Assembly: GCA_048882045.1 (NCBI GenBank)
Contig: JBHLRZ010000024.1
Coordinates: 1-51,893 of the forward strand
Length of the DNA stretch: 51,893 nucleotides
Direction: 5' to 3'
From: Candidatus Thorarchaeota archaeon
GTDB taxonomy: Archaea > Asgardarchaeota > Thorarchaeia > Thorarchaeales > Thorarchaeaceae
Part shown: one piece after another, positions 2,903-16,600 of the stretch
Layout of the letters: each line of letters opens with the position of its first letter
How positions within the stretch are numbered: position 1 is the first letter of the stretch
The notes under the pieces: model-generated
What the model was told of the DNA's origin: nothing
What the model saw: only the letters and a program-made list of their open reading frames with translations
Database searches by the model: none
Made by a program: the position numbers and the translations under genes

Positions 2903-3847
2903 TCATGTTGTTCTGGTTTTTATCTCAAGCTGACAAAGGTCTCCCTCTTGTATTATTCCTGTGAACTGGTCATATTCTTTGGGAACCAGTACGAGGGGAG
3001 GTACAGCCTTCTTTGTGTACAGTTCTGGGTAGATGAAACAAGAGAGACCTCGTAAGCTGCTCCCGTCAAGTGAAGATGTTATTGCAGGGACAGTGAGAAA
3101 ATGATTCGATTCTGTTATTGTGCCAACGGGATTTCTTGCAAGGTACACCTGTGTATTCGCCTTGATATCTAGTCCTCCTACAACCCCTCCCTGTTTATAG
3201 TGCGATATACCTCCATCCAGAATTCCCAGTTTCATGTCTTTTCGATTCTTCGCCGCAAGACCGATGAGACCAGAAATTGAAACATGCTCTATGTTTTTTG
3301 GGAATCCCTTGACAAAGTCCTTTGTCACCTGAATGACCTCGAACTCAATTTCCGCTGACGGTTTGGTTCCTTCACTTGAAGAGTAATGGAAAATCTGCTT
3401 GAAAGTATACGATTGACTTGACCTTTCAAACGATTCTAAAGGCATCACCTCTACATGATAGTGGGGACCTGTCCAGTAGTTGAAGAAACGAGAGCGTAAT
3501 GTTTCACCTATTTCATCTCCAGCTTCGACTAGATCTCCGACAACTACTGTTGGTTTGCAATGTAGGATACGGACAATGTCAGTAAGTGAATGCTCGGGTT
3601 GGATTGCAATACCGAAGTCATGGTCTTCAGTAGGGAACTCTTTTGGGTGACCCATCTTCATCTTTTTGATCTTGACTACTTTCCCAGTAGCTGGAGAAGC
3701 AACAATGTCTGCCCATGACTGATGATATGGGTAGATGTCAACAGAAGATCCCTGTCCATGGCTAATGTAGGGGCTATTGTAGAATGAGAAGTAGGAATTG
3801 TCTGGAGCGTAGATTTCAGTTTCAGATGCAATTCCCACTACTCGCAT
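2903..3847 (-). CDS. M23/LytM-like (duplicated hybrid motif) putative Zn-metallohydrolase
   Basis: H(GQGSSV)D, SPATGKV, V-x-VGD-x-V-x-AGD-x-IG and GPHYH (HxH); no signal peptide. Confidence 0.55.
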   Translation of the reverse strand: MRVVGIASETEIYAPDNSYFSFYNSPYISHGQGSSVDIYPYHQSWADIVASPATGKVVKIKKMKMGHPKEFPTEDHDFGIAIQPEHSLTDIVRILHCKPTVVVGDLVEAGDEIGETLRSRFFNYWTGPHYHVEVMPLESFERSSQSYTFKQIFHYSSSEGTKPSAEIEFEVIQVTKDFVKGFPKNIEHVSISGLIGLAAKNRKDMKLGILDGGISHYKQGGVVGGLDIKANTQVYLARNPVGTITESNHFLTVPAITSSLDGSSLRGLSCFIYPELYTKKAVPPLVLVPKEYDQFTGIIQEGDLCQLEIKTRTT

Positions 3848-12147: not shown

Positions 12148-13392
12148 TTACCTTCTCCTTACGAAGATGACAGCCAGTATGAGGATTACAGCAATCCCAC
12201 CGACAGCAACATACACCAGAGTCCAATCAACTCCATTACCTGTCGGAGTAGCTGGAGTAGTTGGAGTTGTAGTTGTGGGTGTTGTTGTAGGTCCCATTTC
12301 CTCCCACGTATTTGCATTTACATCATATGCCCAAATCATACCGTCAGTTTCAGTTATCAGAACAGTGCTAGAGAATCCCAATCGTGTGCCTCCAAAAATG
12401 ACCACTCTGTCTGACTCCCAGTCGTATGCTGAACCGTGACGACTACGGGTGTCTGGATGAATGGACGGACTCATCTCTGTCCAAGTCACTGTATTATAAT
12501 CAAACACCCATGTGTCAGAATAAGCAGTACCACCAGCCGAACCCCCAAACAGTATAATCTTGTCACTCTCGCTGTCATAGGTGAGAGAAGGAACACCTCG
12601 GACAGATGGACTAGTTGAGGGTGTAATGTTGCTCCAGGTGTCAGTGTTGAAATCATACGCCCAAGTATCTCCGAAGTAGTTACTTAGCTGATTTGCTCCA
12701 GTGCCATCATATCCTCCAAACATTATCACTCTGTCACTCTCTGAGTCATATACCATCTTGTGAGCGAATCTTGATGGTGGTGCAACTGAAGGATTCATCT
12801 CTGTCCACACATTTGTCCCTGCATCGTAAGACCAGGTTTCGTTGAGCACATTACCATCTTCTCCACCGAATACAATGAAACGATCACTCTCTGAATCATA
12901 CACCATATCGTGAGCTCGTCGCTCTGAAGGAGCTGATGTAGGAAAGACCTCAGTCCATGTGTCCGAATTTGTATCGTATAGCCAAGTGTCATTTAGTCTA
13001 TCATTGATGTTTATATCTCTCATACCACCAAACAGGACTATATTGTCTCTTGAGGAATCATATGCAAGACCGGGTTCAGCTCTCCCATCTGGAGCGGGAG
13101 AAGGACTCGTTCGTACAGAAGCATCATTATTGTAATCATATGTCCAGACATCCTTCTTGGCTGCAGTTGTGGGCGTATTGTTCCATCCTCCGAATATTAC
13201 AATACGGTCTGATTCGTTGTCATATGCCATCCCAGGATTTCCTCGAGTTGGAAGGTTTTCGTCTTCCGAAATGGTGAACGTATAGGGAGTAGCCCTAGGA
13301 GTTGAATATGCAATGGGCACCAATCCGAATGTCATCACAATCAGAATAGTTCCTGCAAAAATTTCACGTTTATATTCCTTCAAATCTGGCAA
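12148..13392 (-). CDS. Cell-surface 6-bladed Kelch beta-propeller protein
   Basis: Six R...YD.ESD....FGG...DTW.YD....W repeats; signal peptide, Thr/Pro linker, C-terminal TM + RRR; TTG 13392 preceded by GAGGAGGT (track start 13470 lies in the promoter). Confidence 0.9.
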   Translation of the reverse strand: MPDLKEYKREIFAGTILIVMTFGLVPIAYSTPRATPYTFTISEDENLPTRGNPGMAYDNESDRIVIFGGWNNTPTTAAKKDVWTYDYNNDASVRTSPSPAPDGRAEPGLAYDSSRDNIVLFGGMRDININDRLNDTWLYDTNSDTWTEVFPTSAPSERRAHDMVYDSESDRFIVFGGEDGNVLNETWSYDAGTNVWTEMNPSVAPPSRFAHKMVYDSESDRVIMFGGYDGTGANQLSNYFGDTWAYDFNTDTWSNITPSTSPSVRGVPSLTYDSESDKIILFGGSAGGTAYSDTWVFDYNTVTWTEMSPSIHPDTRSRHGSAYDWESDRVVIFGGTRLGFSSTVLITETDGMIWAYDVNANTWEEMGPTTTPTTTTPTTPATPTGNGVDWTLVYVAVGGIAVILILAVIFVRRR

Positions 13393-13475
13393 ATTAGATT
13401 TACCTCCTCTCCAAATTTCATTGTAGTTTTCATACAACAACAATTTGCAGTGTCTACAACGAGATTCCAAGTAGG

Positions 13476-13550
13476 TATATAATCGTTCTATTCAAATTCG
13501 ATAGAATTGTAACCTCGAGAGTTCTCGAAGTCAGATTGAGAACACTCGAA
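13476..13550 (-). promoter_or_regulatory. Promoter/operator cassette copy 1
   Basis: TATA (minus TTATATA) 13476-13482; TTC-N10-GAA 13491-13506; CTCGAGA-GT-TCTCGAA 13514-13529; extra degenerate site ATTGAGA-AC-ACTCGAA 13535-13550. Confidence 0.85.
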
Positions 13551-13572
13551 CTAAAACCCGTGAATCCTTAAT

Positions 13573-14700
13573 TCACACACTTCTCGAATTCCTTTTGCCA
13601 TTGGCTCTCTTCTCTAGTATGATGATGATAACGATTACAGCAAAGCTGACTGCACCTGCAGCCAATACAAGTTGAGTGTAATCTATCGGTGGGGGAGTCG
13701 GGGAAGTTGGTGATGAAGGTATAGAAGGTGATGGCAGAATATCTGTAGGGATTGTCCCAGAAGGTATCGTTGTATTCATACCAAACGTTGCATCAAATTC
13801 TAACATTTCATTACCAAAGTTCTTAAACGAGATAAAGACTAATTCAGATGTAAGATTTCCCGGAGTATGGTCATAGAATGGATTCGTGGCGGAACTTGAA
13901 CCTTCCACCTGAATCTGACCAATAGTAGTTGAAGCAGTTGATGAGTACTCCATCCATGCGTCACCATAGTCAAATCTATTTCCTACATGACTGACATTCC
14001 AATTTAGAAATTCATCGTGACCTCCAGAGATTGGATTTACAGTATAGACGTAGTTATACACAATGAAGATGAACACAAGAAGAGAGTCACTGAACGTCCA
14101 GTCCCATCCTGTGACTTTAATTCTGAGGTCGAATTGGTCTAGTGAACTAATGTTGAATTGAGCATCAACATCGAGTGCGAGATCCATATAGTTTGCATGA
14201 CCAGGAATACTAGTCCATCCGCTCACAGTTGGTATCATGTTAGGGTCTTGATGTGCGATTTGAGCTTCGTTTGAATATTCCAGTTCTACAAATTCGTATA
14301 GATACTCGGTGACTTCCCAAGGTAATGGAATTTCATTTACCCACTCTCCTATTCCCCACGTTGGCATTATTGAACCCACAAGCTGGTCTTCTTCAGGATT
14401 GAACATATCATCATTGTTTATATCATTCGCTTCGAATATTCCCGAAAAGTCAAAGGAATAGTGACTTGTGTTGTTATCAAACCATAGATCACTAGAATTT
14501 GAAATTGAGAAACTTGGTAACCAAACTCCGTATGCACCAGCTCTAACATTTATTGCTCCGGTACTGATCGTATAACTACACATATCATAATCACATATGT
14601 AGATACGAATTCCGATTGATTGCTGGGCTTCAGTATATGGCAATGCTGCTACTAGACCCAAAACAGCAAGTGCAATTATTACTCGCCTTTTTGTGGTCAT
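13573..14700 (-). CDS. Secreted, C-terminally anchored beta-rich surface protein, hypothetical
   Basis: Signal peptide, D-x-N-x-D Ca-loop-like motif (EANDINNDDMF), Pro/Ser/Thr linker, C-terminal TM + basic tail; AGGTGA SD. Confidence 0.8.
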   Translation of the reverse strand: MTTKRRVIIALAVLGLVAALPYTEAQQSIGIRIYICDYDMCSYTISTGAINVRAGAYGVWLPSFSISNSSDLWFDNNTSHYSFDFSGIFEANDINNDDMFNPEEDQLVGSIMPTWGIGEWVNEIPLPWEVTEYLYEFVELEYSNEAQIAHQDPNMIPTVSGWTSIPGHANYMDLALDVDAQFNISSLDQFDLRIKVTGWDWTFSDSLLVFIFIVYNYVYTVNPISGGHDEFLNWNVSHVGNRFDYGDAWMEYSSTASTTIGQIQVEGSSSATNPFYDHTPGNLTSELVFISFKNFGNEMLEFDATFGMNTTIPSGTIPTDILPSPSIPSSPTSPTPPPIDYTQLVLAAGAVSFAVIVIIIILEKRANGKRNSRSV

Positions 14701-14733
14701 TGATAGTCACCTGTGTGTACGAAGCGATTTAGG

Positions 14734-14787
14734 TATATAATCGTTCTATTCCAATTCAGTTGAAATGCCATTTCGATACTTCTCGAA
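14734..14787 (-). promoter_or_regulatory. Promoter/operator cassette copy 2
   Basis: TATA 14734-14740; TTCCAATTCAGTTGAA 14749-14764; TTCGATA-CT-TCTCGAA 14772-14787; 14734-14766 is 33/33 identical to copy 3. Confidence 0.85.
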
Positions 14788-14801
14788 CTCATTCGAACAC
14801 C

Positions 14802-15629
14802 TCAGACCAATGCAACACTTATGACAGCGAGAAGGAGAAGATTCAGATTTGTGACTATCAGAGTTACAATTACTGCACGCGATTTCCTCACTGTCTTTGC
14901 TCTAGCAAGAGCTATTGTTAGAATTCCTGTACTCCAAGCGATAATGCAAGTCAAGATTATCGTAAGCAACCAGCCACTAAGAACGTTCAAAGTGGGAATA
15001 AAGTACCACATGAGCTCGATGAGGATATGAGGTATAAAAGCCATGGGCACTGATGCAAGGAGTTCTCTTGAAAGACCCGGCTTCTTCAGAATAGGAACTG
15101 ACAAACCCTCAACGAATAAGTATGTACTCAACCATGCAACCAAAGCTGCAAGTATCGTAATTCCTGTATCGAAGGTTCCTTGCAGAAAGAATAGGAAGAC
15201 CGGTAGGAAACCCACCTCTGAAGCAAAGTAGCCATATAGCCCGAGAAATACTACAATCTCAAAAAAGAACCTAAATGGATCCGCTTGAATTCGTTTAATT
15301 ATCGGTTCCATGCTCAGCGCTTTTTGAATGAGGTATGTAGCTGTGCGTTCTCCCTCTTCTGCAGGTGAAACTCCCTCAACCTGATCCTCACTATGCTGGA
15401 TTATTGTGTATGCTGCCTGTCCCAAGTCTGTAAGTGAATATAGCTTGTCTCCGGGTCGTAACACTAAGGGATTATCCGATTTGGAAAGGTTATCCAGATG
15501 GAAATATAATGTACCAGGTTCTAATCCTAACTCTGAAAGGTCAGTGTATGAGACTGCTCCTTGATCTCCAATCATCATGATGATCTGGCGTCTAATCTTG
15601 TGTGATATTGCGCTCAGTACATCATCCAT
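14802..15629 (-). CDS. Membrane-tethered ArsR-like wHTH transcriptional regulator with ~5-TM (Yip1-like) C-terminal domain
   Basis: AISHKIRRQII, VSYTDL, GTLYFHL..L, YSLTDLG wHTH motifs, then ~5 TM helices; last hairpin W...IL..AL...K.V..SRA resembles Yip1. Confidence 0.85.
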   Translation of the reverse strand: MDDVLSAISHKIRRQIIMMIGDQGAVSYTDLSELGLEPGTLYFHLDNLSKSDNPLVLRPGDKLYSLTDLGQAAYTIIQHSEDQVEGVSPAEEGERTATYLIQKALSMEPIIKRIQADPFRFFFEIVVFLGLYGYFASEVGFLPVFLFFLQGTFDTGITILAALVAWLSTYLFVEGLSVPILKKPGLSRELLASVPMAFIPHILIELMWYFIPTLNVLSGWLLTIILTCIIAWSTGILTIALARAKTVRKSRAVIVTLIVTNLNLLLLAVISVALV

Positions 15630-15754
15630 TGTGGAGTCTTTTTCTTTCAGAATAATCCCCCATCAAAGTTCCTTATCCTAGATATTGTTGGTTTGATCGC
15701 GATACTTTCCTCATGCATTCATAAAATCGCATAGTTTGCAGTTGTTCAAAAGAC

Positions 15755-15808
15755 TATATAATCGTTCTATTCCAATTCAGTTGAAATCGGACTTCGAGAA
15801 ATCTCGAA
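15755..15808 (-). promoter_or_regulatory. Promoter/operator cassette copy 3 (upstream of the regulator)
   Basis: TATA 15755-15761; TTCCAATTCAGTTGAA 15770-15785; perfect palindrome TTCGAGA-AA-TCTCGAA 15793-15808. Confidence 0.85.
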
Positions 15809-15862
15809 ATAAATGCATTAAGAGAACGAAGTTCATTAGAGCTTTTGTACCTCTGTGGAGCC

Positions 15863-16600
15863 ATGTCTGTGAACTTTGAAGAAGCTGGAAATCCACAGAA
15901 GAGAACTGTCATTTTTGTACATGGAGCTGGCGGTTCAGCCGCTACCTGGTTCATGCAGCTTCGAGGTCTCTCGAATTATTTTCACATTGTAGCCATTGAA
16001 TTGAATGGCCATGGAAAGACCTCTGACCGCGGCGAGGGAGATCTTCTACACTCGTACCTGCATGATATCCACGAAGTAATGTCCAAGTATGAAAAGCCAA
16101 TATTGGCAGGTCATAGCATGGGGGGTGCCTTGACACAACTATACGCACTGAATCACCCCGAACATCTTACTGGAATCATTCTCGTTGGCACTGGCGCTAG
16201 GCTCAGAGTGACTCCATTGGTCTTCGAGAGTCTTGACAATGATCTTGAAACATACGTGAATCTTACTGATCAGTTTATGTTTCATGAGAGCACATCAGAT
16301 GAAATTCGAGAGGCTTCGAAGCATGAAGTTAGAAAGTGTTCAGTTCATATAATCCGAAGAGACTTCGAACTCTGTGATAGGTTCGATATAATGGACAAAG
16401 TTTCCGGTATCAGGATTCCTACTCTGATATTGGTTGGAATTAGTGATATCATGACTCCAATCAAATATTCCTCATTCCTGAAGGACAAGATTGATGGCTC
16501 AACCATGAAAGTGATTGAGGGTGCAGGTCATGCAGTCATGCTAGAGAAGTCTAAAACCTTCAACAAACTCATTGTAGAATGGATAAACACATTGGACTAG
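15863..16600 (+). CDS. Alpha/beta hydrolase
   Basis: FVHGAGG, GHG, GHSMGG nucleophile elbow, G..D, AGH. Confidence 0.93.
   Translation: MSVNFEEAGNPQKRTVIFVHGAGGSAATWFMQLRGLSNYFHIVAIELNGHGKTSDRGEGDLLHSYLHDIHEVMSKYEKPILAGHSMGGALTQLYALNHPEHLTGIILVGTGARLRVTPLVFESLDNDLETYVNLTDQFMFHESTSDEIREASKHEVRKCSVHIIRRDFELCDRFDIMDKVSGIRIPTLILVGISDIMTPIKYSSFLKDKIDGSTMKVIEGAGHAVMLEKSKTFNKLIVEWINTLD

Follow-up and report, generated by a model that had tools for sequence, protein, structure and literature searches.

A conserved promoter cassette with phased palindromes and its candidate membrane-anchored winged-helix regulator in Thorarchaeota

The cassette locus

The window analyzed here is a stretch of 51,893 nucleotides (positions 1 to 51,893 of contig JBHLRZ010000024.1) of a Candidatus Thorarchaeota archaeon, assembly GCA_048882045.1. 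Its minus strand carries three copies of a cassette, each of which can be described as a promoter of ~75 bp with two or three evenly spaced palindromic sites (dyads) that are candidates for protein binding. The copies, which align without gaps, precede the genes for a Kelch-repeat surface protein, for a second surface protein termed P0002 and for a candidate regulator termed P0001; coordinates of these and of neighboring features are collected in Table 1. The cassette is very probably a regulated promoter module, an interpretation that draws mainly on its pattern of conservation in related archaea.

A repeat finder returned a single three-copy family of 62 nt in the window (13472-13533, 14730-14791 and 15751-15812). 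For the 18-mer TATATAATCGTTCTATTC, 0.01 occurrences would be expected in the window; it has three, and the rest of the 3.63-Mb genome has none. A scan of the 3.6-Mb genome with a full-cassette matrix likewise recovered only the three window copies, and the reversed-matrix control recovered none. Read on the minus strand, each copy comprises a distal 16-bp dyad, a 7-bp spacer, a TTC-N10-GAA 16-mer (the proximal dyad), the sequence TAGAACGA, which resembles a transcription factor B recognition element (BRE), and the TATA box TTATATA.

A tandem-site repeat in three minus-strand copies with this order of parts had been described in an earlier, sequence-only reading of the window, and its particulars are borne out: the two sites start 23 bp apart in all three copies, copies 2 and 3 have in common a 33-bp identical run (14734-14766 = 15755-15787), and the third, degenerate site of copy 1 is present. 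Other particulars stand in part. The distal palindrome is genuine, but is better written as TTCGAG-N4-CTCGAA than as TTCGAGA-N2-TCTCGAA, and it forms a 20-bp palindrome when the conserved AC/GT flanks are included. The block TAGAACGA, which had been called invariant, is so inside this genome only; across relatives it takes the form T-R-GAA-(C/A)-N-A. The 7-bp spacer, described as divergent, is free in its central 3 bp, whereas its first two and last bases are conserved.

Table 1. Coordinates of the cassettes, genes and operator-like sequences in the window
Feature	Positions	Strand	Description
Kelch surface-protein gene	12148-13392	-	six-blade Kelch; Thr/Pro stalk and transmembrane anchor
Cassette copy 1	13476-13550	-	precedes Kelch surface-protein gene
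Copy 1 TATA (TTATATA)	13476-13482	-	
Copy 1 BRE-like block	13483-13490	-	
Copy 1 proximal dyad	13491-13506	-	
Copy 1 distal dyad	13514-13529	-	
Copy 1 third degenerate dyad	13535-13550	-	TTCGAGTGTTCTCAAT; 21 bp beyond distal dyad
P0002 gene	13573-14700	-	375 aa; signal peptide, beta-sandwich ectodomain, C-terminal transmembrane anchor
Cassette copy 2	14734-14797	-	precedes P0002 gene
Copy 2 TATA	14734-14740	-	
Copy 2 BRE-like block	14741-14748	-	
Copy 2 proximal dyad	14749-14764	-	
Copy 2 distal dyad	14772-14787	-	
Copy 2 extra TTCGAA half-site	14792-14797	-	
P0001 gene, candidate regulator	14802-15629	-	275 aa; N-terminal ArsR/PadR-like winged helix and membrane domain
Short upstream open reading frame	15673-15732	-	19 codons (MRF...); ATG exactly 22 nt after copy 3 TATA
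Cassette copy 3	15755-15808	-	precedes regulator gene P0001
Copy 3 TATA	15755-15761	-	
Copy 3 BRE-like block	15762-15769	-	
Copy 3 proximal dyad	15770-15785	-	
Copy 3 spacer	15786-15792	-	
Copy 3 distal dyad	15793-15808	-	
Alpha/beta-hydrolase gene	15845-16600	+	divergent neighbor
Operator-like palindrome	15960-15975	.	TTCGAGGTCTCTCGAA; inside alpha/beta-hydrolase gene
Second operator-like palindrome	16305-16320	.	TTCGAGAGGCTTCGAA; inside alpha/beta-hydrolase gene

Conservation of the module in Asgard relatives

A fixed-spacing 54-bp pattern, with up to 7 mismatches allowed, was run against loci of P0001 orthologues taken from both species genomes and metagenomes. The cassette was matched in 30 of the 32 orthologous loci, where it begins no more than ~70 nt past the regulator stop codon; the two unmatched loci are a contig end and a homologue of 30% identity that has a variant with 24-bp spacing. 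A further 24 family-level loci carry the cassette without exception, and it is present with 23-bp phasing in all Thorarchaeota loci that have a P0001 orthologue and an intact downstream flank. In eight loci a second cassette lies on the other strand, ~1.75 kb upstream (2.7 kb in two), and drives a divergent gene. The complete Thorarchaeote chromosome CP070658 has exactly two cassettes, both flanking the regulator gene. Of the 28 species of the genus, 3 have the regulator, and the cassette is found in those three and in one 71%-complete genome, on a 1.9-kb contig.

The 44 unique Thorarchaeota copies align gap-free over more than 75 bp. Mean pairwise identity in this alignment is 0.97 for the TATA box, 0.84-0.90 for the dyad arms, 0.78 for both the BRE-like block and the left half of the proximal element, and 0.70 for the right half of that element. 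It falls to 0.40 in the dyad centre, 0.32 in the spacer centre and 0.26-0.38, which is the random level, in flanks more than 12 bp away. The selective conservation that had been suspected from the window alone is thus evident in the arms as compared with the flanks and marks a cis-regulatory module. The sequence-only reading had also proposed that loss of the spacing in relatives would speak against its interpretation; the 23 bp is kept in the aligned 44 Thorarchaeota copies, and also in Odinarchaeum.

The consensus of the module reads (c)TCGAA - 5 bp - AC TTCGAG N4 CTCGAA GT - nnn in its 5' part and aTTTCyATAgAnnTnGAAT - rGAAcnA - TTATATAC in its 3' part. Changes in the dyad arms are non-compensatory (e.g., TTCGAGC...CCCCGAG), which suggests a sequence that is read by a protein rather than one that folds as a hairpin. 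The proximal 16-mer, which is TTCCATAGATATCGAA in most lineages, shares 11 of the 14 positions specified in the distal dyad and so appears to be a degenerate second operator. An alternative description of the proximal element as a 21-bp dyad, TTCCAT-N9-ATGGAA, was rejected because its two arms vary independently. Further upstream, TCGAA represents the right arm of a third site, which is placed 21 bp from the distal dyad and is a general feature of the module.

The near-invariant TTATATA and the T-R-GAA-(C/A)-N-A that precedes it fit an archaeal BRE/TATA promoter. In most copies the start codon follows 31-35 nt past the TATA box behind GGTGA, as does the P0002 ATG (33 nt) in copy 2; the exception is the regulator's own copy, at 125 nt. 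From this constant TATA-ATG distance with GGTGA the transcription start site was placed 23-25 nt after the TATA box. Relative to it, the BRE-like block would lie at about -38 to -31, the abutting proximal dyad (TTCyATnnAnnTnGAA) at about -54 to -39, the distal dyad, (AC)TTCGAG-N4-CTCGAA(GT), at about -77 to -62, and the third, weaker dyad or half-site at about -98 to -83. The placement of the sites upstream of BRE/TATA, which had been noted from the window, is confirmed, and none overlaps the TATA box or sits downstream of it. Just 21 TTATATA sites lie upstream of open reading frames (ORFs) in this genome, and TATA hexamers are rare upstream of 275 of its genes led by a ribosome-binding site; a general promoter/BRE consensus of the genome, by which core strength might be graded, was not derivable from those sites.

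In a profile search the regulator family was found in 175 of 301 Asgard genomes, with orthologues at E < 1e-100 confined to the window's own GTDB family (25 of 76 genomes). Distant homologues, at 26-31% identity, still accompany the module. That of Candidatus Odinarchaeum yellowstonii, TTCGGT-N4-CTCGAA / 7 bp / TTCTATAAATATAGAA / CTGAACA / TTTATAAATA, retains the 23-bp phasing and drives a P0002 homologue sited just upstream of the regulator gene. In a third Asgard lineage, which is GC-rich (L010, L063), the parts come in this order as well, phased at 24 bp and oriented divergently to the regulator gene, and here too the module drives a P0002 homologue. Regulator, cassette and P0002-family gene stay together despite changes in gene order. 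No recognizable cassette was found within the 1.5-kb flanks of the more distant homologue loci L007, L009, L011, L014 and L102-L106, and L013 has a partial resemblance only, on the opposite strand. Taken over these lineages, the comparisons argue that the module is a real, ancient genetic switch.

The candidate regulator and its targets

P0001 consists of an N-terminal winged helix-turn-helix (wHTH), a linker of ~35 residues and a conserved membrane domain with five predicted helices, which occupy residues 118-274 of the structure model with a predicted local distance difference test (pLDDT) score of ~80. HTH_20 matches 9 of 16 family members (best E 0.003), the PadR profile matches 3 of 16 at E 0.089, PadR-like PDB chains are reached at E ~0.08, and source annotations call some orthologues ArsR or wHTH. 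Both an N-terminal HTH, albeit as a weak signal, and a membrane anchor are therefore seen in P0001. The linker between the HTH and the transmembrane (TM) helices, where a HAMP or cytoplasmic sensor domain might stand, is short and gave no Pfam match. Neither HTH_AsnC nor RAM/AsnC_trans_reg gave a Pfam match in the family up to E = 1-10, and the likely binder is not of the Lrp/Ptr2 type named as precedent in the sequence-only reading but a membrane-anchored ArsR/PadR-like wHTH protein. A Foldseek search with the regulator model gave no match at E <= 0.001, and among other fold searches with it the best VIA-wide match was a helical domain at Z 6.9, while the Atlas leads were all sub-0.8. A Yip1-like assignment was considered and set aside, since just 2 of 16 members match it, at E 0.1.

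Confinement of the cassette to the P0001 locus and its co-occurrence with the regulator gene make P0001 the obvious candidate binder, and P0001 is likely to be the protein that recognizes the dyads. In the fuller proposal, P0001 would bind 16-20-bp dyads of the form ACTTCGAG-N4-CTCGAAGT, and these would define a local regulon of a membrane-tethered wHTH protein. A regulator paralogue, G000:C39:6990-7448 (L024), shares 33% identity over the N-terminal 160 residues; upstream of it are TTCGAATAGAAG and the palindrome CGAAA-AA-TTTCG, which may represent a related operator dialect.

A cassette in front of the regulator gene itself is found only in this genome (copy 3, matrix score 67) and, in degenerate form, in G009 (score 42); no other orthologous locus has one in that position. 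Autoregulation via a dedicated cassette would thus be a recent, lineage-specific addition, and the case for the positive autoregulation put forward in the sequence-only reading, taken as a general trait, is weakened. Across most Thorarchaeota, an SDR gene and a methyltransferase gene come before the regulator gene in a unit that is divergent from the second cassette. In Odinarchaeum the regulator gene has a T-run and a separate TATA-like box ahead of it. A conserved CCTTGAAAGGG lies ~45 bp beyond the distal dyad in L032 (~3290-3305), and in the same place in L034-L052; it faces the divergent SDR-methyltransferase-regulator unit, on a side where no TATA-like box can be seen. In this genome the regulator mRNA would have a long 5' region, and a short ORF within it (Table 1) may be a leaderless upstream ORF (uORF) or encode a small protein. 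G009 has a comparable MRF... uORF (L005 351-464, plus strand), again with exactly 22 nt between the TATA box of the self-cassette and the start; both begin with MRF and carry YLG at the C terminus or close to it.

Among the genes called behind cassettes, 34 of 40 belong to the P0002 family, which spans Thorarchaeota, Odinarchaeum and another Asgard lineage (alignment A2), and the conserved target of the cassette accordingly appears, from these gene calls, to be a type-I surface protein of this family. The topology of P0002, with signal peptide and C-terminal TM helix, is type-I as in GLMP, and it is the luminal domain of GLMP (6nyq_C) that the P0002 model (pLDDT 77) matches best, with Z 19.3 and a root-mean-square deviation of 3.7 over 239 residues. 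The next fold class, generic galactose-mutarotase-like domains, reaches Z <= 13.6. A GLMP-like fold is therefore the best match for the modeled ectodomain. None of 22 family members gave any Pfam match, the GLMP (NCU-G1) profile included; identity is ~10%, and a literature search found no paper linking GLMP with Asgard archaea.

Other genes associated with the module differ among genomes. The Kelch ORF of the window is open up to 13470, and its likely start is a TTG at 13392 behind GGAGG. The Kelch protein appears, by its distribution, to be a lineage-specific recruit to the regulon in this genome and in G002. In G002 (L025 7778-10720) the gene for a 980-aa Kelch/TSP3-repeat surface protein abuts and precedes the regulator gene with no cassette between, an arrangement by which large Kelch proteins would be tied to the locus in a second way. 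In G021 alone (L027 339-956) a cassette drives, in place of a Kelch gene, a gene for a polytopic membrane protein of 178 aa that has no Pfam match, and the intergenic region has two palindromes of the distal type separated by 138 bp. L037 (7195 onward) has a second cassette, whose leader is nearly identical; the ORF called there bears no relation to the G021 protein. In L056, L058 and L061, which represent one Thorarchaeota clade, the P0002-family gene driven by the cassette is reduced to a remnant of 62 codons (signal peptide and first strands), followed by a double stop and then by a gene for a different secreted protein.

Dyad-like sequences also occur away from the cassettes. The two palindromes inside the divergent alpha/beta-hydrolase gene (Table 1) rank 5th and 12th among all single-dyad matches in the genome. 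Codon alignment with 11 orthologues shows both to be unique to this genome, having arisen by synonymous codon choices and amino-acid changes (S to N; MI to IR), and in other genomes the hydrolase gene does not adjoin the regulator gene. Off-locus matches to the single-dyad matrix are all intragenic and number 37 at threshold, compared with 29 for the reversed-matrix control.

Direction of control and parallels with known regulators

In the mechanism proposed here, each cassette would be a complete archaeal promoter (BRE-like block and TTATATA) placed behind an operator array. P0001 dimers would bind the dyads cooperatively, on roughly one face of the DNA given that spacings of 21 and 23 bp approximate two helical turns, and from the BRE-adjacent site P0001 would control recruitment of transcription factor B (TFB) and TATA-binding protein (TBP). 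The membrane tether would limit P0001 to DNA beside its own gene, which would explain the restriction of the cassette to this locus. The core output would be the type-I surface protein with the GLMP-like fold, and the module would, in this genome, have been copied in front of the Kelch gene and the regulator gene itself. Provided that P0001 binds, activation is slightly favored over repression because all sites lie upstream of BRE/TATA, as they do with ArnR and TrmBL1; Ptr2 and GvpE are also activators that bind upstream of BRE/TATA. The reading as a whole, in which P0001 acts on phased dyads as an activator of a local regulon, has about an even chance of being correct. A broader proposal is decidedly tentative: that this is an ancient one-component switch of Asgard archaea, older than the Thor/Odin split, in which a tethered wHTH protein acts in cis only on the neighbors of its own gene and controls a GLMP-like surface protein, with the grammar dyad - 7 bp - dyad - BRE/TATA frozen, and that it spread by promoter copying to itself and to the Kelch gene, with palindromes seeded in the hydrolase gene.

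Several points weigh against activation by P0001, and they concern the protein, the promoter and the sample. The AlphaFold model of the wHTH part is poor (pLDDT below 50), and P0001 scores 15.3 bits against HTH_20, where the cut-off is 27, which leaves the wHTH assignment sub-threshold in Pfam. This weakness leaves room for some other factor to bind the dyads with P0001 a mere neighbor, such as a small MarR-like protein or a specialized TFB/TBP paralogue that reads the BRE-like block; a 96-aa MarR-family gene does adjoin a divergent P0002 paralogue in many Thorarchaeota loci. Yet the MarR-like family has eight paralogues in this genome and none on the window's contig, whereas the cassette follows P0001 through Thorarchaeota, Odinarchaeum and the third lineage despite gene-order changes, and its absence from the rest of two genomes accords with a tethered binder that acts locally, so that a different binder is improbable. 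The promoter raises the question of direction. A near-consensus core whose TATA box is 97% conserved would be expected of a strong promoter that has to be repressed more than of a weak one that depends on an activator, and the conserved BRE-like block could be part of the operator, implying occlusion of TFB. With the same sites and the same regulator, phased dimers might oligomerize as far as the BRE and block TFB/TBP until released by a signal at the membrane. The core promoter looks strong, with a perfect TTATATA as its TATA box in a genome where few genes are otherwise preceded by canonical TATA hexamers. The proximal site ends 8 bp from the TATA box with an intervening conserved T-R-GAAC block that could be footprint; negative autoregulation is moreover the commoner logic for wHTH repressors. 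Repression is nonetheless considered less likely than activation, in that no site lies on or downstream of the TATA box, the usual place of characterized archaeal repressors (PMC4706686), and ArnR, the closest architectural analogue, is an activator (PMC6396743).

As for the sample, the compared loci are mutually related and copy counts overstate their independence; the contrast of conserved blocks with randomized flanks inside the same alignments is a stronger argument than the counts. A non-regulatory origin of the cassette was also considered, as a recent duplication or gene-conversion tract or as a terminator or RNA hairpin of the upstream gene. The 33-bp identical run of copies 2 and 3 suggests conversion, and the distal palindrome lies just 15-40 nt past the stop codon of the preceding gene. 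Position-specific conservation holds, however, down to ~26-30% regulator identity while the flanks are randomized, some cassettes stand between divergent genes, a position without transcript ends, the dyad arms lack covariation, and an Rfam search of the cassette gave no family match. A non-regulatory origin is accordingly most improbable and, judged by the cross-lineage footprint, appears effectively refuted.

The module constitutes a sharply defined test case, with a 54-bp operator-promoter, known critical positions and a single obvious candidate binder, and comparison across classes supplies natural variants in spacing (23 versus 24 bp) and in half-site sequence. It also points to a surface protein whose fold best matches that of a lysosomal membrane protein. 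No characterized transcription factor-operator pair in Asgard archaea was found in the literature searched, and none is known to the authors.

The bacterial membrane-tethered activators ToxR and CadC offer a functional parallel, in that a DNA-binding domain is carried on a membrane anchor, adjacent or few promoters are served and signal is coupled directly to promoter; these proteins use an OmpR-type winged helix and direct repeats and work with the sigma-70 machinery. Ptr2 and other Lrp-type activators, which work by recruitment of TBP/TFB, likewise have tandem upstream sites next to the core promoter, but P0001 is without Lrp/AsnC features and the half-site sequence is unrelated. TrmBL1, which recognizes the TGM palindrome, and SurR, both of Thermococcales, resemble the proposed system in having a palindrome for a wHTH dimer and an upstream position that leads to activation; TrmBL1 is an activator when bound upstream of BRE/TATA and a repressor when bound downstream (PMC4706686). 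Unlike these soluble proteins, which have genome-wide regulons and single sites, P0001 would be tethered, strictly local in action and served by a phased array.

The likeness to ArnR and ArnR1 extends further. The flaB promoter of Sulfolobus acidocaldarius, which these membrane-bound proteins regulate, carries the two inverted repeats of 15 bp that they require, TCGAC-N5-GTCGA, at -43 to -84 (PMC6396743). P0001, like ArnR, is predicted to be a membrane-bound one-component regulator with an N-terminal HTH, and its putative sites, like the ArnR boxes, are two inverted repeats of ~15-16 bp with a TCGA core (TTCGAG-N4-CTCGAA here) that stand directly upstream of BRE/TATA, at about -39 to -77; the targets in both cases are cell-surface structures. 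P0001 differs from ArnR, which is arranged as HTH-HAMP-sensor-2 TM, in its wHTH, short linker and conserved five-TM domain without HAMP, and the two belong to different phyla and have different targets. The ArnR parallel appears strikingly close in both the geometry of the sites and the core of the half-site.

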